Below the pieces are notes generated by a model. That model saw nothing but the letters and a program-made list of their open reading frames with translations, was not told the origin of the DNA and searched no databases. From positions 1-64,000 of IMG/VR virus record IMGVR_UViG_3300005512_000002: DNA of 64,000 bases; one strand, 5' to 3'. The position numbers were made by a program, and so were the translations under genes. The stretch comes from a virus (Duplodnaviria; Heunggongvirae; Uroviricota; Caudoviricetes). Below are positions 17,454 through 39,723 of the stretch, piece after piece (the stretch's first letter is position 1; every line of letters starts with the position of its first letter).

Positions 17454-17471
17454 CTGGATCTCCCCTAATGT

Positions 17472-23170: not shown

Positions 23171-24166
23171 TCATAGCGACGCTGCGGCCGGTTCGTCCGT
23201 GATCGCGTCCAGGTCGTGGTCCACCATCTCAGCCACCAGCCCCTGGAAGTCCACCTGCGGCTCCCAGCCCAGAACCTTTCGGGCCTTGCGGGGGTTGGCG
23301 ATCAGGACATCCACCTCGGCCGGCCGGTAGAAGCGCGGGTCCACGGTGACGTAATCGCAGTAATCGCCCAGGCCCGCGTGCTCGAAAGCACACTGGCAGA
23401 AGTCAGCCACGCTGTGCGTCTCCCCGGTACCGACCACGTAGTCGTCCGGGTAAGCCTGCTGCAGCATCAGCCACATGGCCTTGACATAGTCGCGGGCATG
23501 GCCCCAATCCCGCTTGGCGGCCAGGTTGCCCAGGGCCAGGGTCTGCTGCGTACCGTCCTTGATACGGGCCACGGCCCGGGTGATCTTGCGGGTCACGAAG
23601 TTCGGCCCCCGCCGGGGGCTCTCGTGGTTAAAGAGAATCCCGTTGCAGGCGAACATCTTGTAGGCCTCGCGGTAGTTGACCGTCACCGCGTAGCCGTACA
23701 GCTTGGCGCAGGCGTAGGGCGAGCGGGGGTGGAAGGGCGTACTCTCATCGCAGGCCACCTCGCCGTGCTGGCCGCCAAAGAGTTCGCTGGTCGAGGCCTG
23801 GTAGAACCGGGTGAAGAAGCCCGAGGCCCGAATGGCCTCCAGGCAATACAGGACCCCCAGGCCGCTGGCCTCCAGGGTGTAGGCCGGCTGGTCGAAGCTG
23901 GTCCCCACGTGGCTCTGGGCGGCCAGGTTGTAGAACTCGTCGGCCCGGGCCAGCCGGCACAGCTTCACCAGGCTGGGCAGGTCTCCCAGGTCGCCCTCGA
24001 CGACCTCCAACCTGGAGTGGCCGATCAGGTGCTCGGCGCAGCCCGGATCATCCCCCGAGCTTCGCCGCTTGAGGCCATAGACCTTGTAATTCATATCCAA
24101 CAGCAGGTCGGCCAGATAGCTGCCGTCCTGCCCGGTGATGCCGGTGATAATGGCGGTACGTTGCAT
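23171..24166 (-). CDS. gmd: GDP-mannose 4,6-dehydratase
   Basis: MQRTAIITGITGQDGSYLADLLLDMNYKVYGLKRRSS is a near-consensus GMD N-terminus; SDR YxxxK (YACAKLYGY); AGGAGA RBS. Confidence 0.8.
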   Translation of the reverse strand: MQRTAIITGITGQDGSYLADLLLDMNYKVYGLKRRSSGDDPGCAEHLIGHSRLEVVEGDLGDLPSLVKLCRLARADEFYNLAAQSHVGTSFDQPAYTLEASGLGVLYCLEAIRASGFFTRFYQASTSELFGGQHGEVACDESTPFHPRSPYACAKLYGYAVTVNYREAYKMFACNGILFNHESPRRGPNFVTRKITRAVARIKDGTQQTLALGNLAAKRDWGHARDYVKAMWLMLQQAYPDDYVVGTGETHSVADFCQCAFEHAGLGDYCDYVTVDPRFYRPAEVDVLIANPRKARKVLGWEPQVDFQGLVAEMVDHDLDAITDEPAAASL

Positions 24167-24185
24167 GCTTTCTCCTGCTCCGGGC

Positions 24186-25028
24186 TCAGCCCGGCAGTTG
24201 CCAATTCTCATCAATCTCATAGCCCAATTCGATCAGTTCCTGACCGACAACCTCCTTGAATACGGCGACTTCCTCGACGGTCCACCGATGCCACCTTTGG
24301 TTACAGCCGGCGACTTGGCCAAAGCTCGAATGCTGGTCGGCTTCCCGGCTGCCGGCTTCAATTTCGGCGGTCCGGATCAAGGCCCTGTCATCGGGCTGCA
24401 GGCCCAGACGCTGAATGAGCAAGCTGACCGTCAAGGCCGGGGCCGCCACCAGGTCCTCGAACTTCACCACCCGATAGTTGGGCAGGTAGTGCAGACAGTC
24501 GGCCACCACCCGCAGACGGTTGCGGGCACCCAGGCACTGCATACGGAAATAATCCAGCCGGTCCCGCTGCTGAAACTCACTGTCCCTCTCGCCCTTGGTC
24601 CACCGCACCGACTCAATGTGATTGCGGGGATCTCGCACCAGAGTCACAAACTGCCAGTCTTGTATATTGCCCGGGAGCCGGACCAATTCCTCGCGGCCCC
24701 AACGGTTGATGCTCTCGCCTTCGTAAGGAGCGGGCACCTGATCGCTGTCCGATCGTTCGCCCCACCAGTTCCACACGTAGTTGTAAAAGACCAGGCTGGG
24801 CGTCGTGGTAGTCGCCAGGCAGTCCCGGATCGCCGTCAGCGGATCAACCTCCTTCGCCAGGTGCACGGTGGGACAGACACGCGGCGGCATGGTGCACAGG
24901 TAACCGTCCTCGGCGTACGGGCAGCCGTCATTTTGGCCCGTGGGCGACAGGGGTCGGCCCTGCAGCATCTTCAGGAAGAAGCACGAGCCGCCCCGGGGAT
25001 AGACGAAGAAATAAATGGGATTGGTCAT
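24186..25028 (-). CDS. Sulfotransferase-family protein
   Basis: FVYPRGGSCFFLKML (5'-PSB-like PRSG[ST] motif) and VTLVRDPRNHIESV (3'-PB-like RDPR motif). Confidence 0.5.
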   Translation of the reverse strand: MTNPIYFFVYPRGGSCFFLKMLQGRPLSPTGQNDGCPYAEDGYLCTMPPRVCPTVHLAKEVDPLTAIRDCLATTTTPSLVFYNYVWNWWGERSDSDQVPAPYEGESINRWGREELVRLPGNIQDWQFVTLVRDPRNHIESVRWTKGERDSEFQQRDRLDYFRMQCLGARNRLRVVADCLHYLPNYRVVKFEDLVAAPALTVSLLIQRLGLQPDDRALIRTAEIEAGSREADQHSSFGQVAGCNQRWHRWTVEEVAVFKEVVGQELIELGYEIDENWQLPG

Positions 25029-25855
25029 GATTCATGGTCCTTCCAGTCACAGGTGCCACCCGGCGCCCGACCATTGATGCGGTCGGCATGCTCAACGACC
25101 CATCGGTACAGCCGCAGGTCCCATTGATTGCCCTCGGCGATGCGCCGGTGCAAGTCAGCATCCAGATCGACCACCTGCCGCTGGCGGGACCGACGGTTCA
25201 ACCAGGGTAAAGGCTCGGACTTCCAGCCCAGACGGGTGGCCAGAACCTCCGCGTCCTGCTGCAACTGCTCAAAACGGCCAATCCAAAAGAATCGCTGCAG
25301 GTTGGCGATGGCCCGCTCGTAATCGAGCATGGTGAGCCGTGGCAGGCAACCAGGTTCTGCCAGCCGCACGCCCGGCACCCGCTCGGTGATGGGTCCGTAT
25401 TGTTCCAGAAGCGGGCCGGCCGCCAACATCCGCGTCATGTGATTGTGTGCCCTGCCCCACTGCCAGGTTGCCGTCCCCGGTTCAAGACTTCCGTACCAGG
25501 CCTCGTCGAACCACCGCGACAAGTCCGCCCCGCGAATCTGAGCCACCACAGTGTCATCAGGAGCCTTGGAGACCTGCGTGTATTCGTACTCGCTGAGCAC
25601 CCGCTCCAGAGGGTCGCGCACGATGGTCAGGTAGCGTGGCGATCCGACCAGTACGCCGTGCAACCCGACGGGCATGTGTCCCCAAACCAGCTTCAAGCCG
25701 TTGATAGGGCCCTGGCCCGGCACTAATACCGTCCGGGTAGCGGCAGCATTCTGCACCCACAGGTGCTCGCCGGACCGCAAGTGACTGTACAACCACTGGC
25801 CAAGGCTGTTGCCGGCGGTCTTCACCAGGTGCACGAAGATCAAGGGCTGGCTCAC
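25025..25855 (-). CDS. Sulfotransferase family 2-like protein
   Basis: FVHLVKTAGNSL (HIPKTGGT-type 5'-PSB) and YLTIVRDPLERVLSEYEY (3'-PB RDP.ER..S.Y). Confidence 0.55.
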   Translation of the reverse strand: MSQPLIFVHLVKTAGNSLGQWLYSHLRSGEHLWVQNAAATRTVLVPGQGPINGLKLVWGHMPVGLHGVLVGSPRYLTIVRDPLERVLSEYEYTQVSKAPDDTVVAQIRGADLSRWFDEAWYGSLEPGTATWQWGRAHNHMTRMLAAGPLLEQYGPITERVPGVRLAEPGCLPRLTMLDYERAIANLQRFFWIGRFEQLQQDAEVLATRLGWKSEPLPWLNRRSRQRQVVDLDADLHRRIAEGNQWDLRLYRWVVEHADRINGRAPGGTCDWKDHES

Positions 25856-26913
25856 TGCAAGGTCTCCAAAAAGCCCTTGACCCGCTCGAACTCGGCGTCG
25901 AAATCCACCACCTCACGGAAGCGTTTGACCGTGCGTTCGGACCAGGCCGGCCAGTCGGCCGCCGCCCGCTCCAGTTGGCGCGCTACGCCCGCCACGCCGT
26001 GCCTGGCCAGGTCAATGCAGGTCTGCCCGTCCGTCATCAGGTGGCTGGCGATCTGGTCGCGGATCTCCTTGAGGCTGACCACCATGGGGCGTCCGCAGGC
26101 AAAGGCGTTGTGGATGTTGAACCCGTAGCCGTCACCCCCAGCCTTGACGTGCCAGACGAAGCCGTGCTCGCGCAGGGCGTCTTCGGGCCGATAGACCGCC
26201 CGGTCCGGATTGCCCGCCCCGTAATTATGGAAAACCCAACCCTTGGTCACCAGCCGGCCGAAAAGCTGTTTGAACTGATCCAGGTACGGAGGCCGTTGGT
26301 AGTGCATCAGGTTGCACAGGCTCTTGGGCTTGGCCACCGGCCAGGGCTGAAACTGATCGAGGCTAAACTCCTGGTGGTAGCGCACGTGCTGAACGCCTTC
26401 CGGGGGCTGGAAGCTGGTGGAGTTGAGCAGGTTCTTAACTCCGGGCGGCAGCGACCAGCCGACGTTGCCCATCTGGAACACGTGCTTGGCCTGCGGGCAG
26501 TATTGCTCGCAGAACTTTTCGTAACGAGCGAAATGGCCCGGGATACTGGACAGCACCAGGTCGAACCCCATCTGTTTGGCCAAGGGCAGAGTCACGCAAC
26601 GGTACACCCGCTCGCGGTAGACCGGGTCTTCGCACAGGTAGATGCCATCTCCGGTGGTGGTGAAATACTTGTTGATGCAATGGCGAGGCCCGTGCTCCTG
26701 CTCGACCGGCTGGCCCCAGATGTCCTGGGGCGTGGCCCGGCTGGTGTCCAGGTACTGCTGGGCGGTGTTGACGTGTGGGTAGACCGCCCAGTAGTCCTCG
26801 TGAAACCACTCCAGGCCGATGGGCCGGTAAAGCTCCCAACCCAGCCGGTCCTCAAAGAGGATTCGCAGGGACTCGTACAGGTCGGTGTGATGACAGTCGG
26901 CCAGAACTCGCAT
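25852..26913 (-). CDS. Putative glycosyltransferase (GT-B-like C-terminus), uncertain
   Basis: FVWHVKAGGDGYGFNIHNAFACGRPMV resembles GT-B donor-binding region; within the sugar cassette. Confidence 0.35.
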   Translation of the reverse strand: MRVLADCHHTDLYESLRILFEDRLGWELYRPIGLEWFHEDYWAVYPHVNTAQQYLDTSRATPQDIWGQPVEQEHGPRHCINKYFTTTGDGIYLCEDPVYRERVYRCVTLPLAKQMGFDLVLSSIPGHFARYEKFCEQYCPQAKHVFQMGNVGWSLPPGVKNLLNSTSFQPPEGVQHVRYHQEFSLDQFQPWPVAKPKSLCNLMHYQRPPYLDQFKQLFGRLVTKGWVFHNYGAGNPDRAVYRPEDALREHGFVWHVKAGGDGYGFNIHNAFACGRPMVVSLKEIRDQIASHLMTDGQTCIDLARHGVAGVARQLERAAADWPAWSERTVKRFREVVDFDAEFERVKGFLETLQ

Positions 26914-26920
26914 GACTTGC

Positions 26921-27691
26921 CTAACTCCCCCACCGCTTGGGTTCGCCGGCCGGCAGCCGCCATTGCGGATCGCCGACCAGCAGGTTGTTGAACGGCTCGC
27001 GGATCGACCAGTCGTTCACTCCCAGGGCCGGGTTGTCGAACGGACGATTGAAGCGGGCATTCAGGCCCGCTCCCCCCCACTTGGTCTGCAAGTAAACCGC
27101 CATGCGGTGGGCGTTATGCTGATAGAGTCGCAGCAGTCGCGGCTCTCGAAGATTCACGCTGGCCGCGTAGGAGTGGCAGAACTGGCCCTCAGCCAGCACC
27201 CGCTTCTCACCCACACCGTTGAAACCGCTACGACGGAAGTAGTCGGCGTCCTCGTGATAAGCAGGCCAGAAGTTCTCGTCGAAATACCCACCCATCTCGA
27301 CGCCCAGTCGGGTCAGGCCAAAGCAGTGCAGATTGCGGAACAGGTAAATGCTGTGAGACTGCTCGGCCTCGTGCTGTTCGATGAACGCCAACATCTCGGC
27401 CAGCGGCTTGTCCAGCACCGCCGACACCGACATGACCAGGGCCAGATCGCAGCCCTGCCCCATGGTGCGGCGGATACCCAGGTTCCAGCTTGCCGCCACC
27501 CCCAGGTTGTAAGGACAGTCATACACCTCGGCCCCGCCGGCATGGGCCTGCTGGCACAGGGCCCGCACCTCGGGGATATCGAGGTTGCAGACCATGATCA
27601 ATTTGGTCAGATCGCCCACGTCCTTGAGCTTCTGGGCCACAAGCTCGGGGGCGTTGGTCACGGGAATGACGACGCGGTAGTCCATGTTCAC
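26921..27691 (-). CDS. Glycosyltransferase family 2 (GT-A)
   Basis: YRVVIPVTNAPEL N-terminus, VAASWNLGI, YHEDADYFRR (ED motif) typical of GT2. Confidence 0.55.
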   Translation of the reverse strand: MNMDYRVVIPVTNAPELVAQKLKDVGDLTKLIMVCNLDIPEVRALCQQAHAGGAEVYDCPYNLGVAASWNLGIRRTMGQGCDLALVMSVSAVLDKPLAEMLAFIEQHEAEQSHSIYLFRNLHCFGLTRLGVEMGGYFDENFWPAYHEDADYFRRSGFNGVGEKRVLAEGQFCHSYAASVNLREPRLLRLYQHNAHRMAVYLQTKWGGAGLNARFNRPFDNPALGVNDWSIREPFNNLLVGDPQWRLPAGEPKRWGS

Positions 27692-27694
27692 GCC

Positions 27695-28186
27695 TCAGCG
27701 ATTGGTTACCCGCCAGCAGTCCCAGTAATCCCAGGGCAGGCGGTAGTCGTCGCCTTTGCTCTCGGCGAGCGTGCTGGTCGAGAAGAACATCACGATGCTG
27801 TCGCAGTCCAGGTCCTGCCAGCCGTTGAAGAACCCCGGTGGAATCCAGAGCAGTTGCGGTTTTGCACTACTCAACACCCAACGGGTTGCCCAAGGCAACT
27901 CGATCGCCACCCGGCGGCTGTCGCCACTGGCCATGTAGCTCTTGGCGTTCGCCAACATGGCCGGGGTCATGGACACCGTGCCCACCAGGATAGCCCCCTG
28001 GGCCACGTAAACATACTTGCCCTCGTGCTGGTGGCCATGCCAGGCCCGCACGCACTCGGGATTGTGGTTATGCACCTGGTAGAACCGCTTGACCGGAGTC
28101 ATGTCGAAATCGTTGGCGAAGGTAATCTGGCCGCGATCATCGACGGCCAGGCCGCCCTCAACGATGCAGGGGCAAGGGGAGTCCAT
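27695..28186 (-). CDS. RmlC-like cupin sugar epimerase/isomerase (dTDP-sugar 3,5-epimerase / FdtA-WxcM-like)
   Basis: FANDFDMTPVKRFYQVHNHNPECVRAWHGHQHEGKYVYVAQGAILVGTV cupin/epimerase-like. Confidence 0.5.
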   Translation of the reverse strand: MDSPCPCIVEGGLAVDDRGQITFANDFDMTPVKRFYQVHNHNPECVRAWHGHQHEGKYVYVAQGAILVGTVSMTPAMLANAKSYMASGDSRRVAIELPWATRWVLSSAKPQLLWIPPGFFNGWQDLDCDSIVMFFSTSTLAESKGDDYRLPWDYWDCWRVTNR

Positions 28187-29120
28187 CGTCGCTCCTTAGA
28201 AACTGGGCGTTGGAATAGTTCGGGTCCCGGTGATTGCGCACCCGGCCGCTCTGCACCAGATGGGCGATCTCCCGCACTCCATCGTCCAAACTGAAGGCTG
28301 GTTGCCAGCCGGTGGCCTGGATCTTGGCGGTGCTGACCTGGTAGTTGCGCAGGTCGTCCGGGCTGATATCGCTTTCGTCGATCAGGGCGTGGGGCACGTA
28401 GCGTCGGATCACCTCGGCGATCTGGCCAAGTCGCTTATTGGCCCAGGCCACGTTGTGCACACCTTGAAGATTTTGAGTGATCGCCCAGAACAGCACGCCG
28501 GCGGCGTCAGCCACGTGCATGAATGGCCGCCACTGCTGCGGACCGATGATGCTGACCGGCTCGCCAGCCGCCGCCCGGGCCGACAACAGGTTGACCACCA
28601 GGTCCAGGCGCAGGCGGGAGTAGGCGTCCCCGCTGCCGAAAAGAGTGCCAAATCGAGCCACGAAATGGTCCGCCACCCGTCCGGTGACGATCTGCTCGGC
28701 GGCGTACTTGCTCTTGGCATACAGCGAGATGGGTCCAGGTGTGCTGGTTTCGTCGAGCACCCCGTCCTGCCGGCCGTAGACCGAGCAGGTCGAGGCAAAG
28801 ATGATCCGCCCCCGGTAGTTCTGCACCAGCCATTCGACCGCTTGGGTGTTGATGGCCATGGTGTGCTCGGGGTCGCAGTCGCAGGCTCCGTCACCCACCA
28901 GGGCGGCCAGCCAGACCACCACGTCATAGTGGGGCAGAATCTGGGCCAGCCGGCGCCGGTCACGCACGTCGGCATGGATGAAGTGCACCGGCTTGAAGTA
29001 GCGGTGCTCGTAGGTCAGATTATCCAGGACGGTGACCGACAGGCCCGCCCGGGCCAGTTGGTCGGCAAGGTGACCGCCGATATAGCCGGCTCCGCCCACG
29101 ATGAGAATGCGGTTGCTCAT
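28158..29120 (-). CDS. NAD-dependent sugar epimerase/dehydratase (SDR family)
   Basis: ILIVGGAGYIGGHL (GxxGxxG) and YAKSKYAAE (YxxxK). Confidence 0.65.
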   Translation of the reverse strand: MSNRILIVGGAGYIGGHLADQLARAGLSVTVLDNLTYEHRYFKPVHFIHADVRDRRRLAQILPHYDVVVWLAALVGDGACDCDPEHTMAINTQAVEWLVQNYRGRIIFASTCSVYGRQDGVLDETSTPGPISLYAKSKYAAEQIVTGRVADHFVARFGTLFGSGDAYSRLRLDLVVNLLSARAAAGEPVSIIGPQQWRPFMHVADAAGVLFWAITQNLQGVHNVAWANKRLGQIAEVIRRYVPHALIDESDISPDDLRNYQVSTAKIQATGWQPAFSLDDGVREIAHLVQSGRVRNHRDPNYSNAQFLRSDDGLPLPLHR

Positions 29121-30007
29121 GATTCAGACAGTTCCCTGTAATCCTCGGTCTCCTCGGCCACCTGGGCGAGCATGTCGTCCCAGGACGGCTTGTCGATACC
29201 AGTCGCCTGGCGAAAACGGTCATCGACCATGGTGCGGTCGCAGAGCACGCTCTCGTCCGGCTTCACACGCAAGTCGAGATCGAAATGACGGGAGATCACG
29301 CCAAGCAAATGCCACTTGTTGATCTCAGGCCCGGCTACCTGGTACAGACCATGCAGGTCCGGGTGCTCCAGTATGACCAGCTTGATGATGCGGGCCAGTT
29401 CGTTGGTGGTCACACCGCTGTACAAGGCCCGCACGTAGCCATTGACCTGTTTACCCTTCTGGCTGAGAACCCATTCCAGCAGGCTGTAGCGATTGAACAC
29501 CTCCCGTCCGATGATGCTGGTGCGCAGGGTGAGTGTATTGTGCTGGTCCACCACCTCGCCCAGGGCCTTGCTCATGCCATAGTGATCCAGGGGATCGGTG
29601 GGCGAATCTTCGGTGTACTGCCCGTGGAGACCAGAGAACACGCAATCGGTACTGACGTGGATCAGCCGATTGCTGGCCTGACTCAGATCGTGCGGTAGGA
29701 TGCTGTTGACCCGCACCAACTCGCGGGGATCACCAGTGACACATCGCGGCTTGATGACCCCCGCACAATTGATCACGAACTCCGGCTCGCGCTCGAAGAT
29801 GATCGCATCGTAGTCGTGAGCATCGACTTCGTGTATCCAATAAACGTCGGTCACGGACATGCCAGGAAGATGTTGAACCGTATCGCACTGGTGGAACATC
29901 CGCACCAGAGCGGTGACCTCGAAGCGGCCGTCCTGAGCCAGCACCTGGGTTACCTTGTGTCCCAGCATCCCACTGGCGCCCGTCACCATAACGCGGATCT
30001 TGCTCAC
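29117..30007 (-). CDS. dTDP-4-dehydrorhamnose reductase (RmlD)-like NAD(P)-dependent reductase
   Basis: KIRVMVTGASGMLG and YGMSKALGE (YxxxK); GTGA overlap with the upstream methyltransferase stop; alternative ATG 29989. Confidence 0.55.
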   Translation of the reverse strand: MSKIRVMVTGASGMLGHKVTQVLAQDGRFEVTALVRMFHQCDTVQHLPGMSVTDVYWIHEVDAHDYDAIIFEREPEFVINCAGVIKPRCVTGDPRELVRVNSILPHDLSQASNRLIHVSTDCVFSGLHGQYTEDSPTDPLDHYGMSKALGEVVDQHNTLTLRTSIIGREVFNRYSLLEWVLSQKGKQVNGYVRALYSGVTTNELARIIKLVILEHPDLHGLYQVAGPEINKWHLLGVISRHFDLDLRVKPDESVLCDRTMVDDRFRQATGIDKPSWDDMLAQVAEETEDYRELSES

Positions 30008-30576
30008 AGCTTGCTCACTTTCTCGGCCATGGACTGGCAGGTCTCGCACGGTAGGCCGGCCAAAGCCACCCGCAATTCTTCGTAGGTCACCCGATCCATG
30101 CACGGCGGCGGGTCCAGGGGAACCGGCTGCGGGATGCAAGTGAACCCGCATAATCCGGGTTCCGGGGGCAGGAACCAGCAGGTCAGATCCCGCTGCGTGG
30201 TCAGGATGTAATGCAGCAGCTTGTAGGCATCCCCGCTGAACTGCGGGGCACACTGTGCTTCGCAGGTGGGGATCATGTCGTGCAGGAAGATCACGCCCCC
30301 GGAAGCAAGGTGCTCGACGCTGTGGTTGTAGTCCCGCACCACCTGGCGGAACTCATGGCAGGCGTCGATGTAGATCACATCGAAGACTTCATCACCCACC
30401 TCATGAGCAAAGAAGTCGTCGGTGGTCATCTGGAAGGTAGCCGGGTACTTGGCGTCCACCGAGAACTTCTCGTTGGCCCGCACCGTCCCGAAGGTGGCAC
30501 CCTGAAAGACGCCAAGCTCCAGGTACCGCTTGCGGTCCATGTCCGGCACAGCATTGATAATATCGGGAATGGCCAC
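30004..30576 (-). CDS. Class I SAM-dependent methyltransferase (small, O-MT-like)
   Basis: YLELGVFQGATF (motif I), VIYIDACH, GGVIFLHDM. Confidence 0.5.
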   Translation of the reverse strand: MAIPDIINAVPDMDRKRYLELGVFQGATFGTVRANEKFSVDAKYPATFQMTTDDFFAHEVGDEVFDVIYIDACHEFRQVVRDYNHSVEHLASGGVIFLHDMIPTCEAQCAPQFSGDAYKLLHYILTTQRDLTCWFLPPEPGLCGFTCIPQPVPLDPPPCMDRVTYEELRVALAGLPCETCQSMAEKVSKL

Positions 30577-30579
30577 GAC

Positions 30580-31308
30580 TTATTGCCCCTTGATCCAAAG
30601 GGTCTGTTGGAAATCCAGCACGCACTGCCAGCCGTGGTCGGCCAGGTAACACTTGGCCAGCCGGCTCTTGCCGCCGCCGGGGAAGTTGTTGTCGTCGATC
30701 AGGATCACCGTGCCGTCGTGCACCTGGGGCCAGGCGGCCTGCAGTTCGGCCAGACAATGGGCCTGACATGGGTTGATCAGATGGCCGAACTCGGCCAGGA
30801 TCTGCTCGTCGGTGCTTTGCCGGTACTCCTGGGGCAGGCCCTGAGCGGCCAGCCACCTGACGATGGGCACGATCGGATAGTCGTAACTGTCCAGGTACAG
30901 CAGGTCGATCCCGCCCCCACCCGAATGCACCTGGGGCATGCCATCCTGCTTGAAGTCCAGGGCCCCGGGCTGGCCCAGGCTCAGCAGGTAGGCCACCGAA
31001 TCCTGACAGGTGAGCGTGCGGACCGGGGCCCACGGGTCGGTGAGCCGGGCACACACGCTCAGGTTGTCGGCACTGATGTCCACCGTCCACAGGTGTCCGC
31101 CGTAGCGGCTCAGCACCTGGCAGAACAGGACGCTGGAGTACCCGGCCCCGTAATCGTCTTCCTGGCGGACACAGCCGGTCTCGACGATCCGGGTGCCGCC
31201 GCGTTGCAGGAACAGGTTCAAGGCCGCCCGCATGGTGGGCCAGCGGCTGTCCATCCGGGCCCGGTGGGTCTGATCGAACCAGTTATTCACCAAGGCGAAG
31301 TTGTGCAT
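30580..31308 (-). CDS. Putative class I SAM-dependent methyltransferase
   Basis: RIVETGCVRQEDDYGAGYSS, IDLLYLDSYDY, GTVILIDDNNF resemble Methyltransf_24-like cores. Confidence 0.4.
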   Translation of the reverse strand: MHNFALVNNWFDQTHRARMDSRWPTMRAALNLFLQRGGTRIVETGCVRQEDDYGAGYSSVLFCQVLSRYGGHLWTVDISADNLSVCARLTDPWAPVRTLTCQDSVAYLLSLGQPGALDFKQDGMPQVHSGGGGIDLLYLDSYDYPIVPIVRWLAAQGLPQEYRQSTDEQILAEFGHLINPCQAHCLAELQAAWPQVHDGTVILIDDNNFPGGGKSRLAKCYLADHGWQCVLDFQQTLWIKGQ

Positions 31309-31310
31309 GG

Positions 31311-32342
31311 CTACAAGGTCTCCAGAAAGTTCCGCCAGCCGGCCTTGGCAGCGTCCTTGGAAAACAACTCCACGGCCCGCTTGCGCCCAGCCCGGGAAAC
31401 AGCAGCCGCCAGATCGTCGTTCTCCATCAGGTGTCGAATGATGCCCTGGGCCTCGACCACGTCGTCGCAGGTAAAGCCGCTGATGCCCTCCTGGATCAGG
31501 TCCGGAACCTCGTACAGGTCGTGGCCCGGGAAGTAGTCGGCGTTGCCCAGCTTCGGACCCACCGCCACGATGGGAATGCCGGTCATCCAGGCCTCGATGA
31601 AGTTCAGCGTGTAGCTGGCCGGATGGGTGCCCACGTACAGGTACACCCGGTGGTCGCGCATGGCAGCTTTAAGCTCGTCGAAGCTCACCTTGCCCTGATT
31701 GGCACTGCCGGCCGCCTCGTTGCCCGGACCGTAGAGCTTGGTGGGAAAGCCGCTGGTCACCTGCTTCCAGAAGTCGTAGTTGCACTGCCGCACCCGGTCG
31801 GGCAGGGCCTGGTTGAACGTGATGACGGCTTTCTCGTGCCCGGTCCAGCCACCGAACTCCTCGGGGTCCTTGTAGAACCGGATCAGGGCGTCCTCGCCCA
31901 AGTACCCTGGGATGGTCCGCTCCCGGGGCGAGTAGCGCACCACCTTCAGGCCGTCCTGACGGTAGCGGGCCAGACCCATCTCGACCGGCTGAATGCTCTG
32001 GCCGATGGTCCGCCACACCACGGGTTTGTGCCGCATGGCGGGCCAGTTGCCGGCGATCCACTTGGGCAGGTGCATGACCACCACCGCGTCGAAGCGATCG
32101 ACAAACTTGCGGGTCAGGTGATCCTTGGCATCCTGACCAGGATACTGGGCGCACAGGGCGTGCCAGGCGGCCAGGTCCTCGGGGTCGTACTGAATGTTGG
32201 CCAGACCGGGGCGCATGCCATCGCCGGAGACCGCCGGGTCGATGTAGCAGCCAGGCGAAAAGACATAGTGGCCAAGCTCGCCGAGCAGGCTGACCTCGTC
32301 GTACTCCAGGATCGAATGGCAGGACAGGTACAAAATCCTCAT
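31311..32342 (-). CDS. Glycosyltransferase family 4 (GT-B)
   Basis: RVYLYVGTHPASYTLNFIEAWMTGIPIVAVG and GFTCDD...LAAAVSRAGRKRAVELFS match the GT4 C-terminal domain. Confidence 0.55.
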   Translation of the reverse strand: MRILYLSCHSILEYDEVSLLGELGHYVFSPGCYIDPAVSGDGMRPGLANIQYDPEDLAAWHALCAQYPGQDAKDHLTRKFVDRFDAVVVMHLPKWIAGNWPAMRHKPVVWRTIGQSIQPVEMGLARYRQDGLKVVRYSPRERTIPGYLGEDALIRFYKDPEEFGGWTGHEKAVITFNQALPDRVRQCNYDFWKQVTSGFPTKLYGPGNEAAGSANQGKVSFDELKAAMRDHRVYLYVGTHPASYTLNFIEAWMTGIPIVAVGPKLGNADYFPGHDLYEVPDLIQEGISGFTCDDVVEAQGIIRHLMENDDLAAAVSRAGRKRAVELFSKDAAKAGWRNFLETL

Positions 32343-33817
32343 GGCTGAGCGGCCCCTTCCCATTGACCGCTGAGCTTCAGCACGTTGAAGGCATCGCGGT
32401 CGGCTTGCTTCCTGGCGTTGAAATCGGCCCAATCGGCGTCCGCCTTCACGTCGTAGGCGGGAAAAAGGTACTTGAAATCGTCGTCGCCCTCGGCAGGGAT
32501 GTGCAGGTCCACCCGGTCAGCCACCTCGCAGGTCCGGTCGTACATATCGGACGTGAAAAGCTCGTGCTGCATCTCGCTGCGCTGCCGGATGCTGTAGACA
32601 CCCTGGTGTTCCTGGCCGGCGGCCAACCCGTCACCCACGGAGCCCTTGCCGATGCGTGAGCAGACCGCCTGCAGGACCGCATCTTCCGGCTTGGCGTAGT
32701 GGCAGTCACCGGCGACCACCACGGGCACGTCCAGTTGGCGGGCGACCTCCAGGATCTGCGGCACGGCCTGCATGTAGCGGTCGAAGTCGATCGGCTGCAC
32801 CTCGCAGTAGTACCGGTCGCCGAACACGTCGCGGCATCGCTTCATGACCTGGAAGCTGCGGGTCGGGTCGTAAAGATAGACGGGCACCTTCCGACCGTCC
32901 TCCAGCACCCGTAAGGTCTGCTGCTGGTTTTCCCGGGGCGGCTCGAACTGCTGCAGGTGCCAGGCCACGGCCCCCTTGAAGCAGCCCGAGAGCACGATCA
33001 GGCCCTGGTGGTGCTCGGCCAGCATCTGCCAGTCGATGCGCGGCACGTGGTAAAAGTGGTCCCGGCACGCGGCAGTCGCCAGCAGGCACAGGTTGTGGAA
33101 CCCGACCTGGTTCATGGCCAACACCGTCTGGTGATACTCGAAGCGCACCGGCTTGTCGGTCTCGTCCACGTAGGGCACACGCACGTCGTCCACCAGGTAG
33201 AACTCGCAGCCGATCAAGGGCTTGACACCCACCTCCCGGCAGGCCTGGTAGAACTTGAAGGCCGCGAACAGATAGCCGTGGTCGGTCAGGGCGATGGCCT
33301 GCTGGCCGTTAATCGCGGCCTGCTCGGCAATCTGCCGAGGGCTGGCCACACCATCCAGAAACGAATACATGCTGTGCACGTGCAGGTGGCAGAACCGGTC
33401 GTCGGTGGCCAGGGCCCTGCCGCGATACAGGGAGTAGCCGCCGTCAGCCGACAGGTCCAGAATCTTGCGGGCCAGGCGTCCCAAGTCCGGCACGGCCAGG
33501 GTGCTCACGCCGCCGAGGTCCTGACTGGCGATCAAGTAGGCCTTGCTGCGCACCCCGTCCAGCAGGACCGTCCAGAGCGACGCAAGGCCGGGGAACTGGC
33601 TTCCGGGGGCCCAGCTTCCGGGGGGGTCGATCTGCCCTTGCGGTCCCACGGCGATCGGCACCACGTGGTAGGTGGCCCCGGTGTCCGGGTTGGTGGCCAG
33701 ATACCCTTCGGCGTGCATGTTCACACCCAGCGCGTCCGCCCCGCGATCGGCAAAGAATGCCGTCGCCGTGCGGGCTTCAAGCTCGGATGCCGGGTTGTAG
33801 TCCGGTCCTCGGGGCAT
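32339..33817 (-). CDS. PHP-domain protein corresponding to the detached N-terminal PHP domain of DnaE, with a ~140-aa N-terminal extension
   Basis: CHLHVHSMYSFLDGVASPRQIAEQAAINGQQAIALTDHGYLFAAFKFYQACREVGVKPLIGCEFYLV matches the DnaE PHP opening; later LSGC, E, CHY motifs; ends where DnaE PHP would join the palm. Confidence 0.7.
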   Translation of the reverse strand: MPRGPDYNPASELEARTATAFFADRGADALGVNMHAEGYLATNPDTGATYHVVPIAVGPQGQIDPPGSWAPGSQFPGLASLWTVLLDGVRSKAYLIASQDLGGVSTLAVPDLGRLARKILDLSADGGYSLYRGRALATDDRFCHLHVHSMYSFLDGVASPRQIAEQAAINGQQAIALTDHGYLFAAFKFYQACREVGVKPLIGCEFYLVDDVRVPYVDETDKPVRFEYHQTVLAMNQVGFHNLCLLATAACRDHFYHVPRIDWQMLAEHHQGLIVLSGCFKGAVAWHLQQFEPPRENQQQTLRVLEDGRKVPVYLYDPTRSFQVMKRCRDVFGDRYYCEVQPIDFDRYMQAVPQILEVARQLDVPVVVAGDCHYAKPEDAVLQAVCSRIGKGSVGDGLAAGQEHQGVYSIRQRSEMQHELFTSDMYDRTCEVADRVDLHIPAEGDDDFKYLFPAYDVKADADWADFNARKQADRDAFNVLKLSGQWEGAAQP

Positions 33818-33891
33818 ACGGCACCCGACTCCTCACACAAGGGACATCTGTGACAAGTCCCCTATCGACTCATCACACAGCGAACCTAAGC

Positions 33892-35142
33892 TCAGGTCAG
33901 AGCCACCTCGTTGGCGATGGCCGTCAGCCGGTCACCGAGCTTCTGACAGGCGATCTTCCAGGAAAAGCGTGTGCTCATGTCGCGGCGGGCCTGCTGGCGG
34001 ATCTCGGCCATCCGATCACCCAGGCTCGCCTCGTAGGCCAGCCGCATGGTGGCGGCCAGTTCATCCAGGTCGCAGTCGGCCCAGTGCTGCTCCTCGTAGT
34101 GCCGGCACTCGCCCCGCTCTCCGCGATTGGCCGGCACCAGCTTGTAGTTCTTCAGCAGCAGCGAGTTGTCATCGGTCATGAACTCGGTGTTGCCGGACCA
34201 GTTCACCGCGATGGTGGCGCATCCCGAGGCCATGGCCTCACTGAAGGTCAGCCCCCACCCTTCACCGCGTGAGGGCAGCGCGTAGCAGTCCAGGGCCGAG
34301 TAGAAGCCCGGCATGGCGGCGGCGGGCAGAATGTCGGTGACCAGGGCCACGCGCGGGCAGGTGCTCTCGCTGTGACCGCAGGCCGCGCGCAGCTTCTGCA
34401 GCTTGCCGCGAATGTAAGCCACCGAGCGTTCGACGGGGTACTGGTAAAACACCTTGAGCACCAGGCAGACCGGGTCCTTGCGGGTGAACGTCCGGAAGTA
34501 CGCGGTCAGCAGGCCCTCGGGGTTCTTGCGCGGACTCCAGTCGAAGTTCGAGCCGAACAGAAAGTAGTCCTTCTTCAAGGCCGCCAGTTCCGGCATGGGC
34601 TCGGCCCCCGGATGATAAAACGCGGTGTCTACGCCGTGGGGTACGACCGTGATCCGCCGGCGAATGCCCTGTTTGCGGAAGACCTGCTTGTTGAACTGGG
34701 AGAAGACGATGATTTCGTCCATGCTCCGGAGCGGTGCCTGCCAGCCCTGCGGCAGACCGTCGGTCTCGAAGGTGGTCATCCCGATGTGGTAGCGGCACTG
34801 CGGCGGCCCCACCAGATAATTCTCGGGCGTCAGATGCTGCAAGAACAGGAACGGGGCCCCCACCGCCAGGGTGCGGTCCTGCATGCGCATGAGGGCGGGC
34901 AGGGCGTTGCCCACATCCAACTGTTCGCCCTGCCAGAAGTACCGGGGCTTGAGATACAAGTCGAAGCCGCCGGCCGCGTCCAGGCCCAGCAGGTATCGCC
35001 GCGAGGCCTCGCCGTAGCCCGAGGGGTCCATGACCGAGCCCGACCAGACCAGCGGCACCCCCGGAAGTTTCTCCACGGGGTCTGTCGCCACCGGGCCAAC
35101 ACGATCGAGTGCACGCGGTGTTGCTTCGGGTGATTGCAGCAT
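33892..35142 (-). CDS. Glycosyltransferase family 4 (GT-B)
   Basis: LPSRGEGWGLTFSEAMASGCATIAVN matches E..G.GL...EAMA.G.PVIA. Confidence 0.6.
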   Translation of the reverse strand: MLQSPEATPRALDRVGPVATDPVEKLPGVPLVWSGSVMDPSGYGEASRRYLLGLDAAGGFDLYLKPRYFWQGEQLDVGNALPALMRMQDRTLAVGAPFLFLQHLTPENYLVGPPQCRYHIGMTTFETDGLPQGWQAPLRSMDEIIVFSQFNKQVFRKQGIRRRITVVPHGVDTAFYHPGAEPMPELAALKKDYFLFGSNFDWSPRKNPEGLLTAYFRTFTRKDPVCLVLKVFYQYPVERSVAYIRGKLQKLRAACGHSESTCPRVALVTDILPAAAMPGFYSALDCYALPSRGEGWGLTFSEAMASGCATIAVNWSGNTEFMTDDNSLLLKNYKLVPANRGERGECRHYEEQHWADCDLDELAATMRLAYEASLGDRMAEIRQQARRDMSTRFSWKIACQKLGDRLTAIANEVALT

Positions 35143-35144
35143 AA

Positions 35145-36581
35145 CTACAGCACCTCCACCCGGCCGGTCTCGGTCGTCTGTTCGGGCAGGGTCACCGGGT
35201 CGTACTCCAGAACCTGGTTGATCAGGGTCTTCCAGGCCCCGGTCGCCTTCTCCCAGGTGTACTCGGTCATGCGGTTGCGTCCGGCCAGGGCCAACTCACC
35301 GCGCAGGCCGCGCCCGAAGGACAGCTTGCTGCGCACCAGGTCCATGTCGGCCCCGTGGTGCTGCAGGTAGGGCCCCCACTTGGTGAGAAACTGGTCCTTC
35401 TCGTAGTAGAACCGGTCCATCTTGAAGACCAGGTCCAGCAGGTCCACGATGGCGTGCTCGGCGCAGTTGTGGGCCTGGGTGACCATCTCCGAGACCTCGA
35501 TGAACTCGGCGGCCCCCTGGCAGAAGTCCACGTGACCCGAGTAGCAGGTGACCAGCACCGGCACGCCGCAGGCCATGGCCTCGGCGATGGGCAGGCCCCA
35601 TCCTTCCCCGCCGGTGGGCAGGACGAACAGGTCCATGCCGTTGTAGACGCGATTGAGCAGATCGTCGGGGCATCCCACGCCCTCCTGCATGCCCTGGGGC
35701 ATGCGCACCATGTCGTCCAGACCGAAGCGGCCGACCAGGGTGATCAGGTCATGCCCGCAGTGGTCGTCCCACTTGGTGTGCAGGTAGAGCATGGCGTTGG
35801 TCTTGGCCGGCGACGGCACCAGGGTCGCATGCTCGGCCTGGCACTGCCCGCAGGTGTGCTTGGTATTCGCCGGATCATCCAGGAACATGACGAAGCCGCA
35901 GGCCGGGCAGGTGAGCGTGGCCCGGGTGAACTGCCGGAAGCCCTTGAGCAAGCGCGGCAGCATCTTGCGCACGTTGTTGCGGGCCACGCAGCCGACGATG
36001 AATCGGTCCGGCGAGCCCACCAGGGTGCTGCGGCAGGCCATGACCTCCGATTCATCGGCGATCGGACGGAAGGTCTCGATATTGACGCCGTGGGCGATGG
36101 CCGCCGCGTCCAGGCCCGGAATCGCGGCCTCGATGGCCCGTTTGCCGAACGGGCCGTAGGCCACCACCTTGTCGAAGCTGGCGATGGTCTTGACCCACTT
36201 GCCCACGACGGGGATGCCGTCGATCGGCAGGTAGCCCACCATCTTGTGCTCACGCGGACGGGCGGCCAGGTGCCGGACCATCCACTCATCGCCGATGGTG
36301 ATGACCAGGTCGGGCTTGACCCTCTCGATCACACTGTCGTAGGAGACCTGGCCATAGGCGTCCCGGGCCTTGGCCTCGGGGCTGTGCCGCTCGGTGGAAT
36401 AGACCTTGAAGGGCACGAGCCGGTCGGTGGGCCGATGGAACCAGCCGTGCTGGACCACGTCGTACTGGCCACTGGTGGTCAGGGCGGTGCCGATCTCCCG
36501 GGCCACGCGGGCGAAGCCGGTGTCCAGGAACGCCGAGTCCGAGCAGATGAGAATCTTGGGTTTGCGGGTCCAGGTGGTCAT
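35145..36581 (-). CDS. Glycosyltransferase family 4 with an inserted zinc-ribbon (CPACG...CGQC)
   Basis: TGGEGWGLPIAEAMACGVPVLVT; AGGAG RBS 8 nt before ATG 36581 (minus). Confidence 0.55.
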   Translation of the reverse strand: MTTWTRKPKILICSDSAFLDTGFARVAREIGTALTTSGQYDVVQHGWFHRPTDRLVPFKVYSTERHSPEAKARDAYGQVSYDSVIERVKPDLVITIGDEWMVRHLAARPREHKMVGYLPIDGIPVVGKWVKTIASFDKVVAYGPFGKRAIEAAIPGLDAAAIAHGVNIETFRPIADESEVMACRSTLVGSPDRFIVGCVARNNVRKMLPRLLKGFRQFTRATLTCPACGFVMFLDDPANTKHTCGQCQAEHATLVPSPAKTNAMLYLHTKWDDHCGHDLITLVGRFGLDDMVRMPQGMQEGVGCPDDLLNRVYNGMDLFVLPTGGEGWGLPIAEAMACGVPVLVTCYSGHVDFCQGAAEFIEVSEMVTQAHNCAEHAIVDLLDLVFKMDRFYYEKDQFLTKWGPYLQHHGADMDLVRSKLSFGRGLRGELALAGRNRMTEYTWEKATGAWKTLINQVLEYDPVTLPEQTTETGRVEVL

Positions 36582-38148: not shown

Positions 38149-38850
38149 TTAAGCTCCTGTCTCACCCAGTTCCGCCCGGGTATGCAAGGCCTGCTCGGAC
38201 CGCCCGGTGGATGCAGGCCGCTCGCGTTCGCCGTGGTTGATGATCCCCAGGATCTGGTCGAGATAATACTGGTTGATATTCTCGACCATGAGGTTGAGCC
38301 CAGCGACAATCCGCTCGGCCTGCTCGACGGGCATGTCATGGCCCTGGGCCCGCACGGTGCTCAGGAATCCCTCGACGGTATGGATGGGCTCGCAGTGACA
38401 GACAGGTTCGCCCTGCTCGATGGCGCGGTTCGCCGTGACCACCGTCTGGCCGGGCCCGGCCTGCGGCGGGGGTTTATCCGGGTCGAACGACTTGGCCAGG
38501 CCGTCGGCCAGTTCGGGGGGCAGAAAGCCAAGCTCGATCATGCGGCGGGTATGCAGGAAGCACATGATGTTCCAGGCCGCCGCCTCGGCGTGCGGCTCAT
38601 CGGTCCAGCCCTGGGCGGTCTTGGCCAGGTGCCTTGAGGCGGAACTGATGTACTCACGCAGGGGAATCCCCTGCTCCCAGTTGCGGTCGCCGTATTTCTT
38701 GCAGCCGGCCTCGAAGTGGCGGGCCAGCGCTTCCAGGGCGTAGTATGGCAGCAGGTCGAACCGGCCCTTGTTCTCGCCCATGTCACGCACGGCCCCGGTG
38801 CCGAAGTCGCGCCGGTTACCGGAATCCTTGATCACTGGACCGTTGGTCAT
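38149..38850 (-). CDS. Putative nucleotide pyrophosphohydrolase-like protein (dATP/dGTP diphosphohydrolase N-terminal-domain-like), uncertain
   Basis: KGRFDLLPYYALEALARHFEAGCKKYGDRNWEQGIP...RHLAK...DE.HAEAAAWNIM resembles the phage dNTP diphosphohydrolase N-domain. Confidence 0.35.
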   Translation of the reverse strand: MTNGPVIKDSGNRRDFGTGAVRDMGENKGRFDLLPYYALEALARHFEAGCKKYGDRNWEQGIPLREYISSASRHLAKTAQGWTDEPHAEAAAWNIMCFLHTRRMIELGFLPPELADGLAKSFDPDKPPPQAGPGQTVVTANRAIEQGEPVCHCEPIHTVEGFLSTVRAQGHDMPVEQAERIVAGLNLMVENINQYYLDQILGIINHGERERPASTGRSEQALHTRAELGETGA

Positions 38851-38930
38851 GGTCGTTGGCTCCATACAGGGGCGGCTTGGCCGCGCCCGTTACGCCTCCC
38901 CCGCGTGGCGGCTGCAGCACTAGCGGCGCC

Positions 38931-39668: not shown

Positions 39669-39723
39669 CACCGGCTTAGCGGCCGCACCGCAGGTGCGCC
39701 CTGTTTCCGGGGCGGGGGCGGGG
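39669..39723 (-). repeat. Composite repeat copy R7 between SSB stop and RuvC start
   Basis: Minus-strand reading ccccgcccccgccccggaaacagggcgcacctgcggtgcggccgctaagccggtg ATG. Confidence 0.6.

Follow-up and report, generated by a model that had tools for sequence, protein, structure and literature searches.

Two divergent sulfotransferases encoded within a putative deoxyhexose glycan gene cassette of an uncultured tailed phage

Does a phage that encodes two sulfotransferases side by side among sugar genes make a sulfated glycan, and on what would such a glycan be placed? The question is raised by a stretch of 64,000 nucleotides of Caudoviricetes DNA, positions 1 to 64,000 of the IMG/VR virus record IMGVR_UViG_3300005512_000002 (hereafter the window), in which a first-pass annotation made from the sequence letters had assigned the adjacent open reading frames (ORFs) 24186-25028 and 25025-25855 to the sulfotransferases. 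We call the products of these two ORFs ST-A and ST-B, respectively. We are highly confident that they are two real sulfotransferases, very divergent and of two different families. The identification is based on family profiles, on conserved residues for binding 3'-phosphoadenosine-5'-phosphosulfate (PAPS) and on AlphaFold models whose 50 best structural matches are sulfotransferases only, and for both ORFs the three agree with the assignment. The alternative that the ORFs belong to non-sulfotransferase P-loop NTPase families was tested, and neither of them fell there. Both genes lie in a run of glycan genes on the minus strand. Our reading, to which we give about as much credence as doubt, is that this operon makes a methylated, sulfated deoxyhexose glycan that decorates the virion.

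The sequence of ST-A (24186-25028, 280 amino acids) by itself gave a Pfam match to Sulfotransfer_3 (3.2e-4) of 21.4 bits, which is under the cut-off of 27; it found nothing useful in the PDB, and a word-indexed search of 5.8 billion clustered proteins returned one relative. A profile made from ST-A and one relative (P0002) retrieved 198 proteins, 83 of them at E<=1e-10, in an exhaustive HMMER search of 1.84 billion representatives. In an alignment of 104 sequences, query included, Sulfotransfer_3 was matched by 79 (best 4e-27) and Sulfotransfer_1 by 65, and the only other Pfam family matched was Sulfotransfer_4. The family profile matched 73 PDB sequences at E<=1, led by the CurM sulfotransferase (3e-15), SULT2A1 (1e-14) and TPST1 (1e-12); the 60 matches listed comprised sulfotransferases, proteins with the sulfotransferase fold (retinol dehydratase) and two unnamed entries. 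ST-A was thus placed in the sulfotransferase superfamily by transitive evidence, that is, by the Pfam matches of its relatives and by the comparison of the profile with the PDB, its own score being below the cut-off. By a narrow pattern scan, the family was found in none of the species-representative bacterial genomes.

The PAPS-binding elements of ST-A are recognisable. The 5'-phosphosulfate-binding loop is Y-P-R-G-G-S at residues 10-15, following the first predicted strand (residues 5-9), and close relatives hardly vary at its R12 and G14. The 3'-phosphate-binding motif is R132-D-P-R-N-H-I-E-S140, with the R-x7-S spacing, and it aligns with the same motif of the CurM sulfotransferase and SULT2A1; across the 104 sequences R132 never varies, and the conservation of D133, R135 and S140 is 90% or higher. 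Both motifs announced by the first-pass annotation are therefore there, but their letters differ from the version that it gave. The AlphaFold2 model of ST-A has a mean predicted local distance difference test score (pLDDT) of 92.2 and a predicted template-modelling score (pTM) of 0.90. A Foldseek search of the PDB with this model gave 76 matches at E<=1e-3, of which all the best 50 have the sulfotransferase fold, and the best was SULT2A1 (1.5e-6, template-modelling score (TM) 0.54). Compared with other Sulfotransfer_1/3 enzymes, such as the CurM sulfotransferase, SULT2A1, TPST, StaL and Teg12, ST-A has in common the fold and the PAPS-binding R-x-G-S and R...S, and differs in its own subfamily motifs (N-W-W-G, V-P-x-P-Y, H-S-S-F and E-L-G-Y) and in its Pfam score.

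The results for ST-B (25025-25855, 276 amino acids) took a similar form. Its own Pfam match, to Sulfotransfer_2 (1.3e-3), reached 19.3 bits against a cut-off of 22, its single sequence found nothing useful in the PDB, and the word-indexed search of 5.8 billion clustered proteins again returned one relative. ST-B matched PHROG 3347, 'Galactose-3-O-sulfotransferase', at 2.4e-6. A two-sequence profile of ST-B and P0004 matched HS6ST3 (5t03) over the full length at 5.5e-4 and HS2ST at 0.08, and retrieved 80 proteins, including ones named HS6ST; about half of the 80 carry PF03567 and/or PF06990, and no other Pfam family was recorded. The 5'-phosphosulfate-binding motif is H9-L-V-K12-T-A-G15-N-S17 and the 3'-phosphate-binding motif is R80-D-P-L-E-R-V-L-S88-E-Y, again with R-x7-S spacing. 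Across 50 sequences H9, K12 and G15 reach a conservation of 90% or more and R80 and S88 do not vary; the 3' motif aligns with R-D-P-V-S-R-Y-L-S of HS6ST3 and R-D-P-I-E-R-L-V-S of HS2ST. G59-H60 is also at least 90% conserved, in a region aligned to the HS6ST segment that precedes the catalytic His, an alignment that does not imply exact equivalence. As with ST-A, the motifs expected from the earlier annotation were found, V-K-T-A-G-N-S occupying residues 11-17, but not in the letters that it had given.

The AlphaFold2 model of ST-B has a pLDDT of 82.2 and a pTM of 0.83. In the Foldseek search of the PDB the best match was HS6ST (5.7e-7, TM 0.55), followed by HS2ST, and the best 50 matches were all sulfotransferases. 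ST-B shares with HS6ST, HS2ST and the Gal-3-O-sulfotransferases (PF03567/PF06990) the fold, H-x-x-K-T-(G/A)-G-(T/S), R-D-P-x-x-R-x-x-S and perhaps a conserved His. It is 13-18% identical to them, much shorter and without a Golgi membrane anchor, and its acceptor is certainly not heparan sulfate. A pattern scan of viral contigs for ST-B found nothing. The closest ST-B clade consists of lone genes for sulfotransferases of 214-233 amino acids on three other viral contigs, L002 (4903-5574), L021 (10001-10702) and L022 (2865-3509); here and below, L001 to L022 are our labels for related contigs. On L002 and L021 siphophage tail genes stand a few genes upstream of the lone gene, whose position is thus moron-like: both contigs encode a Rax2-like protein and Sipho_Gp37, and L021 also Phage_tail_T. 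On L022 no recognisable tail genes were seen around it. These lone genes suggest a second, separate use of sulfotransferases by phages.

In both families the motif positions are invariant or near-invariant columns of the alignment, which takes the motifs beyond chance. ST-A and ST-B show no similarity by BLASTP, and comparing their family profiles gave only a marginal similarity (hhalign E 0.012), in which the 3'-phosphate-binding motifs were in register; recent duplication was therefore ruled out. Neither protein had a tblastn match in 50,697 isolated-phage records. The first-pass annotation had called sulfotransferases unusual in phage genomes, and this was overstated: PHROG 3347 exists, and UniProt lists viral sulfotransferases from the Synechococcus phages S-SCSM1 and S-T4, the Prochlorococcus phage P-SSM7, uncultured Caudovirales and giant viruses. 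In the literature phage sulfotransferases are listed as auxiliary genes whose role 'remains unclear' (PMC10580990, PMC8290583).

What surrounds the two genes is a compact set of sugar genes. Fourteen genes, 13 of them glycan genes and one a DnaE fragment, abut or overlap on the minus strand between 36581 and 23171, in the transcription order GT4b, GT4a, PHP, GTB373, MT242, MT190, RmlD-like, SDR, cupin, GT2-like, unk353, ST-B, ST-A and Gmd. ST-A and ST-B, as well as ST-B and unk353, overlap by 4 nt, the PHP/GTB373 junction is an ATGA overlap, and the remaining gaps in the cassette are shorter than 100 nt. A consensus scan for promoter- and terminator-like sites around the cassette found no excess over shuffled sequence. 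Given the tight junctions and the lack of such an excess, the 14 genes are read as one operon. A repeat search around the cassette found nothing above chance and no insertion scars. The G+C content is lower in the cassette interior (24000-30300), at 0.615-0.625 against 0.65-0.67, and at third codon positions (GC3) it is 0.77 in the ST-A and ST-B genes against 0.87-0.89 in the flanking replication genes; these values are consistent with a horizontal and more recent acquisition of the interior and its sulfotransferase genes.

The donor-sugar genes named by the first-pass annotation, a Gmd, a cupin, an RmlD-like reductase and an epimerase of the short-chain dehydrogenase/reductase (SDR) type, were recovered with differing strength. 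Gmd (23171-24220), a GDP-mannose 4,6-dehydratase and the last gene of the cassette, matches Pfam GDP_Man_Dehyd at 1.2e-121 and reaches the NCBIfam equivalog TIGR01472 (417.5 bits, cut-off 415); it is 52-69% identical to the Gmd proteins of related viral islands. The extended SDR (28158-29120), an NAD-dependent epimerase/reductase, matches Epimerase (2.9e-36), GDP_Man_Dehyd (3e-21) and RmlD_sub_bind (1e-19), and reached no NCBIfam equivalog. The RmlD-like 4-ketoreductase (29117-30007) matches RmlD_sub_bind at 2.3e-19 from residue 87 of the long ORF; its start is probably not at 30253 but at GTG 30007, which gives the Rossmann start VSKIRVMVTGASG and meets the stop codon of the gene upstream. 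The cupin (27695-28186) did match RmlC-like families, but weakly and below the Pfam cut-off (dTDP_sugar_isom 1.4e-5, 25.3 bits, cut-off 27; FdtA 4e-3). We tentatively regard it as a putative 3- or 3,5-epimerase acting on GDP-4-keto-6-deoxyhexose.

Two methyltransferases of the Methyltransf_24 type, dependent on S-adenosylmethionine (SAM), had been expected as well. MT190 (30004-30576), a class I SAM methyltransferase and putative sugar O-methyltransferase, passes the cut-off of 26.3 bits with 39.9 bits (8.5e-10), but MT242 (30580-31308) falls just below it with 25.3 bits (2.9e-5) and is called methyltransferase-like here; it matches PHROG 24975 at 6e-25.

The count of at least five glycosyltransferases (GTs), including two further GT4 genes at 33892-36581, was borne out: two are clear GT4 enzymes, one is GT2-like and two are recognised as GT-B only with family profiles. 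GT4b (35145-36581), the first gene of the cassette, matches Glyco_trans_1_4 (9e-10) and PHROG 2170 (6e-25), and its likely start is the ATG at 36581, preceded by AGGAG, as annotated at the first pass. GT4a (33892-35142) matches Glyco_trans_1_4 (2e-9), Glycos_transf_1 (5e-9) and PHROG 2170 (2e-24); among isolated phages its only matches were GTs from phages of Streptomyces, Rhodococcus, Microbacterium and Microcystis, with identities of about 23-28% among the matches listed. An 81-nt direct repeat of 72% identity (34227-34307 and 35570-35650) reflects the paralogy of these adjacent GT4 genes in their C-terminal nucleotide-sugar-binding region. GTB373 (31311-32342, the start revised to ATG 32342), a GT4-like GT-B enzyme, matches Pfam Glyco_trans_1_2 at 2.7e-6, and its family profile matches PglA (8dvz, 1.6e-5) and also Alr3699 and TarM. 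The GT2-like protein (26921-27691), of GT-A type, matches Glycos_transf_2 below the cut-off (2.3e-3) and PHROG 29879, 'galactosyl transferase', at 2.9e-17, and is 27-29% identical to GTs of Pontimonas phage phiPsal1 and Synechococcus phage S-CBS4. For unk353 (25852-26913), no match was found in Pfam, NCBIfam or PHROG; the profile of its 14-sequence family matches the C-terminal Rossmann domain of the GT4 enzyme Alr3699 (4xso) at 1.2e-3, and we describe it as GT-B-like.

IMG/VR was searched with unk353, and homologues were found on 14 further viral contigs of 34-71% G+C. Their islands have a conserved frame in which GT4b, GT4a, MT242 and GTB373 come first, unk353 follows after a variable stretch, and Gmd after another. 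GTB373 is the most conserved frame gene, with orthologues in 13 viral loci at 33-54% identity; those of GT4b were found in nine loci, those of GT4a in six, and those of MT242, at 35-44% identity, in L003, L008, L010, L012, L013 and L019. The frame genes of the window are closest to those of low-GC contigs (35-48% GC), the GTB373 proteins being 51-54% identical. As for the two sulfotransferases, tblastn against the 50,697 isolated-phage records gave no match for unk353 or GTB373. We take the cassette to belong to a mobile, mosaic glycan island that is common to very different uncultured phages and seen only in metagenomic viruses.

Within the family unk353 is the marker gene and the most consistent neighbour of the sulfotransferases, which occur in six of about 16 island loci (L001, L003, L012, L013, L019 and the window), each time within about 1.5 kb of unk353. 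The ST-A family is found in L001, L003, L012 and L013; in L019 a gene of the ST-B family stands immediately upstream of unk353, and the window is the one locus that has both. L001 has two tandem ST-A paralogues (5510-7191), 41% and 33% identical to ST-A and followed by the unk353 homologue. A 295-amino-acid gene in the ST-B position of L003 was considered and is not ST-B-like. The sugar pathways of the six loci otherwise differ: the interior of L001 encodes an N-formyltransferase, a DegT aminotransferase and a Methyltransf_24 protein, and that of L013 a PIG-L deacetylase, three hexapeptide acyltransferases, a GFO/IDH/MocA oxidoreductase and two DegT aminotransferases. The sulfotransferases are one of several interchangeable tailoring modules of the island. 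In the related island of L012, a 1103-amino-acid ORF (14901-18212) is similar to Gmd over about 144 residues only; it may be a fusion or a gmd gene interrupted by an intein or intron.

These loci bear on what the sulfotransferases act upon. The clan of ST-A holds tyrosylprotein, steroid and polyketide sulfotransferases, two of which, TPST1 and the CurM sulfotransferase, are among the leading profile matches reported above, and the fold does not reveal the acceptor; ST-A could then sulfate a small molecule or, like TPST and RaxST, tyrosine in proteins, its place among sugar genes being incidental. We regard this as very improbable, because genes of the ST-A family recur beside unk353 in four other loci, one with two copies, because the family of ST-B is exclusively carbohydrate-sulfating, and because the genes overlap by 4 nt inside a sugar operon. 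The carbohydrate sulfotransferases to which ST-B is related, and the position of the genes beside unk353 in six independent loci, link the sulfotransferases to sugar, and in our judgement the sulfate is probably placed on a sugar of the cassette's own glycan.

Evidence on the acceptor of the glycan came from six high-GC contigs, L014-L018 and L020 (66-71% GC), whose head module contains the core GTB373-unk353-GT4b immediately behind the capsid gene. The order of the genes, exemplified by L017 (contig IMGVR_UViG_3300033121_001474, 2989-12781), is portal, a protein of about 315 amino acids, HK97-type major capsid, a methyltransferase-like gene, GTB373, unk353, GT4b and connector-like genes. The portal profile matches the RcGTA portal (1.5e-3), and the major capsid protein, of HK97 type with a delta domain, matches HK97 gp5 (8e-7). 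The genes after the core look, by eye, like connector, tail and tape-measure genes, and the gene preceding it shows a SAM-methyltransferase-like motif, also by eye; no tie of this gene to MT242 was found (hhalign E 0.12). The protease/scaffold candidate had no match in the PDB, and tblastn of the flanking proteins against isolated phages was uninformative. In L010 a terminase and a portal gene follow within 5 kb after the island.

Four observations point to the virion as the target: in six contigs the core adjoins the capsid gene; the enzymes are all soluble; viruses whose hosts must be very different have the same frame; and phage-encoded GTs have been shown by experiment to glycosylate subunits of the capsid and the tail tube (Freeman et al. 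2023, cited in PMC12619734). By analogy with the glycosylated capsids of mycobacteriophages and chloroviruses, the acceptor may be a virion protein; of the targets considered it has the best support, and we hold the proposal to be evenly poised. A host-specific envelope polymer is probably not the acceptor, since the frame GTs are 33-54% identical across viral contigs of 34-71% GC.

On this reading, soluble and presumably cytoplasmic phage enzymes would assemble and tailor an oligosaccharide during infection. Gmd would convert host GDP-mannose to GDP-4-keto-6-deoxy-D-mannose, and the cupin and the two SDRs would epimerise and reduce this to one or two GDP-6-deoxyhexoses of the fucose, rhamnose or talose type. 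The five GTs would build a short glycan on the acceptor, the methyltransferases would O-methylate it with host SAM, and ST-A and ST-B would each add one sulfate ester from host PAPS, at a different position or on a different sugar. With virion proteins as acceptors, the capsid first, the particle would gain a strongly anionic, methyl-capped glycan coat. Both the sulfated, methylated 6-deoxyhexose product and its target are inferred. The PAPS-synthesis genes cysC and cysN, which the first-pass annotation had suggested looking for, and likewise cysD and cysH, had no Pfam or PHROG match among 57 ORFs scanned in the window, and no ManC was detected in the window either; GDP-mannose, SAM and PAPS would therefore have to be supplied by the host or by genes outside the window.

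The same cassette could instead remodel the host envelope, adding a sulfated, methylated side chain or cap to an O-antigen, glycolipid, capsule or cell-wall glycan during infection, whereby superinfection would be blocked or progeny kept from re-adsorbing to lysed cells. Envelope remodelling has long been proposed for the 'LPS' (lipopolysaccharide) gene clusters of cyanophages and has been shown for seroconverting phages. Bacteria also make sulfated surface glycans with PAPS sulfotransferases, for example rhizobial LPS, K-antigen and Nod factor, and mycobacterial sulfoglycolipids. GT4 and GT2 enzymes like those of the cassette normally serve envelope polysaccharide, the nearest solved relatives being PglA, TarM and Alr3699, and the closest ST-B clade stands, in L002 and L021, as a lone gene after tail genes, where 'morons' of lysogenic conversion are found. 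We nevertheless think envelope remodelling unlikely. None of the cassette proteins showed a transmembrane segment in a Kyte-Doolittle scan, and the cassette has no flippase (Wzx), polymerase (Wzy), ligase, Gtr-type protein or initiating phosphoglycosyl transferase; the same frame GTs occur in viruses that range from 34 to 71% GC, and a single envelope acceptor common to their hosts is unlikely; the core directly follows the major capsid gene in six contigs; and the phage looks lytic, judged from the window, in which Pfam and PHROG scans of the ORFs found no integrase or repressor.

Several points weigh against a virion glycan. The 64-kb window contains no structural gene, so that the acceptor is unseen there, and the genes around the island are those of replication, not of the head, in the window as in L003 and L019. 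The adjacency to the capsid gene is suggestive only, as structural modules also receive morons. It is common for peripheral GT4 and GT2 enzymes that lack membrane segments to use undecaprenyl-linked intermediates and host flippases, and a host-envelope product is compatible with the lack of membrane proteins in the cassette. The core GTs, GTB373 and unk353, have no detectable homologue in the glycosylated mycobacteriophages studied by experiment or in any isolated phage. On the biochemical side, the cupin and the second methyltransferase score below the Pfam cut-offs, no single His or Glu of ST-A could be assigned as the catalytic base from the alignments, although E191 is nearly invariant, and sulfation would depend on host PAPS, no gene for its synthesis having been found in the window.

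A further alternative is raised by the place of the island in the window, between the two halves of a divided replicative polymerase. The PHP ORF (32339-33817, Pfam PHP 1.4e-40) is not a glycan enzyme; it is the N-terminal half of a split DnaE, whose polymerase core, the C-terminal half, forms the downstream flank of the cassette (20519-23074, minus strand; PHROG 405, 9e-168, profile positions 359-1049 of 1190). The halves are 9.26 kb apart, and the 11 glycan genes from GTB373 to Gmd lie exactly between them. Residues 142-474 of the PHP ORF, which has a 140-amino-acid N-terminal extension, align to residues 4-325 of the intact DnaE of Streptomyces phage Maneekul (1161 amino acids), and residues 34-844 of the core ORF to residues 332-1107. 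The GC3 of both halves is about 0.87-0.88, and the PHP ORF is predicted to be translationally coupled to GTB373. A split intein was considered for the divided DnaE and rejected, because the halves align end to end with intact DnaE and leave no room for intein fragments.

This position in the replication module, near a PD-(D/E)XK nuclease, a MazZ-like enzyme, SSB, primase and helicase, would suit a glycan that is built on a modified base of the phage DNA and then methylated or sulfated, evading restriction and CRISPR. Phage GTs can put mono- to trisaccharides on 5-hydroxymethylcytosine (bioRxiv 10.1101/2023.12.21.572611), and weak Pfam 'GT4-conflict' matches were seen. Such DNA hypermodification seems to us very unlikely all the same. 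Pfam and PHROG scans found no C5-cytosine methyltransferase, TET/5mYOX enzyme or pyrimidine hydroxymethylase in the window, whose sole DNA methyltransferase found is Dam-like, with a D-P-T-Y motif read by eye; five GTs, deoxyhexose synthesis, methylation and two sulfations exceed any known DNA glycan; and the same core is found in the head module of other viruses. The unseen rest of the genome and the replication-module location keep this unlikely explanation alive.

All of these explanations suppose that the locus is viral, which is almost certainly so. The window has 65% G+C, with coding nearly all on the minus strand from about 16 to 48 kb. It encodes RecE/RecT, the split DnaE-like polymerase (about 32% identical to the DnaE of Streptomyces phages, which are actinophages), primase, DnaB, single-stranded DNA-binding protein (SSB), RecA, a Rad52-like protein, a class-I-type ribonucleotide reductase, an exonuclease, an exonuclease V/Dda-like helicase, a GIY-YIG endonuclease, a PD-(D/E)XK nuclease and a MazZ-like dATP/dGTP diphosphohydrolase. 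Most of its ORFs have no Pfam match, and no tRNA or housekeeping gene was found in it. There was no exact match among 185,579 species-representative genomes and no nucleotide similarity to isolated phages, and in a distant nucleotide search the only matches were gmd genes. The end of the window had no match in IMG/VR; it lies on a 22.6-kb JGI metagenome contig, and the sulfotransferase genes lie on another of 3.4 kb. One could suppose that the locus belongs to a host chromosome, as a polysaccharide island of a bacterium or the degenerate remains of a prophage, since the 64 kb yielded no gene for capsid, tail, terminase or lysis and the 22.6-kb contig is the only long public one found for the window's end. 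This supposition is highly improbable in view of the replication and recombination genes, a DnaE closest to actinophage enzymes, the orphan ORFs, the lack of tRNA and housekeeping genes and of an exact genomic match, and the presence of homologous cassettes on IMG/VR contigs bearing terminase, portal and HK97 capsid genes. The proviso of the first-pass annotation, that the locus might turn out to be host chromosome, was answered in favour of a phage. From the lack of structural genes in 64 kb, the phage genome is probably large.

Other features of the window were noted in passing. Three recombination systems are present together: RecE/RecT-like (1954-4101, plus strand), Rad52/22-like (17472-18233, minus strand) and a full RecA (45601-46815, minus strand; Pfam RecA 5.6e-76). 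The window starts inside an ORF (1-1278, plus strand) that shows at positions 1-60 a tandem Pro/Glu-rich repeat of P-E-P type (ccggaaccc repeated) and matched nothing in Pfam or PHROG. The only predicted membrane proteins of the window are an SPFH/Band-7 protein with an N-terminal hydrophobic segment (16098-17147, minus strand), adjoined by the GIY-YIG endonuclease, and a protein with four transmembrane segments just upstream of the ribonucleotide reductase (49763-50716, plus strand). The MazZ-like enzyme (dGTP_diPhyd_N, 2e-19) adjoins a 332-amino-acid ORF without a Pfam match (38149-38865 and 38931-39929, both minus strand), and by Pfam no PurZ-like adenylosuccinate-synthetase homologue is present in the window. 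Near the window end lies a 242-amino-acid, fragment-like subtilase ORF (Peptidase_S8; 61479-62207, minus strand).

Returning to the glycan-coat reading, we compared the cassette with known viral systems. Methyltransferases accompany the virion-glycosylation GTs in some mycobacteriophages. Sulfation has, to our knowledge, not been reported for any phage glycan. Among eukaryotic giant viruses, the chlorovirus PBCV-1 and the Mimiviridae decorate the particle by means of Gmd-type sugar synthesis, cytoplasmic GTs and sugar methyltransferases, in clusters that vary by lineage; their GTs are unrelated to those of the window. Giant viruses carry sulfotransferases annotated in UniProt, and we know of no description of sulfated capsid glycans in them. 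A functional parallel among bacterial viruses is the virion glycosylation of the mycobacteriophages Che8, Corndog and Myrna, in which, according to PMC12619734 and PMC11256854, soluble phage-encoded GTs likewise act in the infected cytoplasm, on capsid and tail-tube subunits, and the genes may lie outside the structural module. GTB373, unk353 and both sulfotransferases lack detectable sequence homology to these systems, which are functional analogies at most, and the cassette, unlike them, would supply its own deoxyhexose donor through Gmd, the cupin and the reductases and would further sulfate the glycan.

The sulfotransferases of cyanophages and marine phages (S-SCSM1, S-T4, P-SSM7, S-SRM01; PHROG 3347) are likewise phage-borne and of the PAPS type, with a role that is not known (PMC10580990). 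In the literature consulted they are reported as isolated auxiliary genes, whereas those of the window are of two families and stand inside a full sugar operon. Multi-GT clusters of metagenomic phages have been described by Pyle et al. (bioRxiv 10.1101/2023.12.21.572611); their GTs are related to LPS and teichoic-acid enzymes, and the clusters sit sometimes beside structural genes and are defined by an adjoining methyltransferase (MT) and 5mYOX. No C5-methyltransferase and no 5-methylpyrimidine dioxygenase were found in the window, and sulfotransferases and GDP-mannose are not mentioned in that work.

Viral sulfotransferases as annotations and phage glycosylation cassettes were thus already known. 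New are the integration of two sulfotransferases of different families in a self-contained deoxyhexose glycan operon, the membership of this operon in a family of islands with a conserved frame and a variable interior that is seen only in metagenomic viruses, and the link of the island core to the capsid gene. More speculatively, and with rather more doubt than belief, we propose that this is an undescribed, widespread island family in which a four-glycosyltransferase frame would glycosylate the capsid and hypervariable tailoring would give a serotype-like, diversifying coat, an equivalent of the O-antigen. The tailoring would be sulfation in the window and amination, acylation or formylation in other loci, and the glycan of the window would be the first sulfated glycoconjugate of a bacterial virus. 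The combination of a variable interior with a conserved frame suggests diversifying selection on phage surface glycans.

Phage sulfotransferase genes have until now been an annotation curiosity. Since those of the window stand inside a full operon of donor, transferase and tailoring genes, and since the core of that operon lies beside the capsid gene in related viruses, they gain a testable hypothesis, namely that some phages wear a sulfated, methylated glycan coat, and the operon context allows a substrate to be proposed for them. If this is true, virion glycosylation, shown for a few mycobacteriophages, would extend to a broad set of uncultured phages. The two enzymes would be small, soluble and very divergent carbohydrate sulfotransferases, possibly useful for glyco-engineering. 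Sulfation would also join the chemistry of the phage surface, where it would bear on charge, on adhesion to mucus and polysaccharide, on shielding from antibodies and receptors, and on the pharmacology of therapeutic phages.

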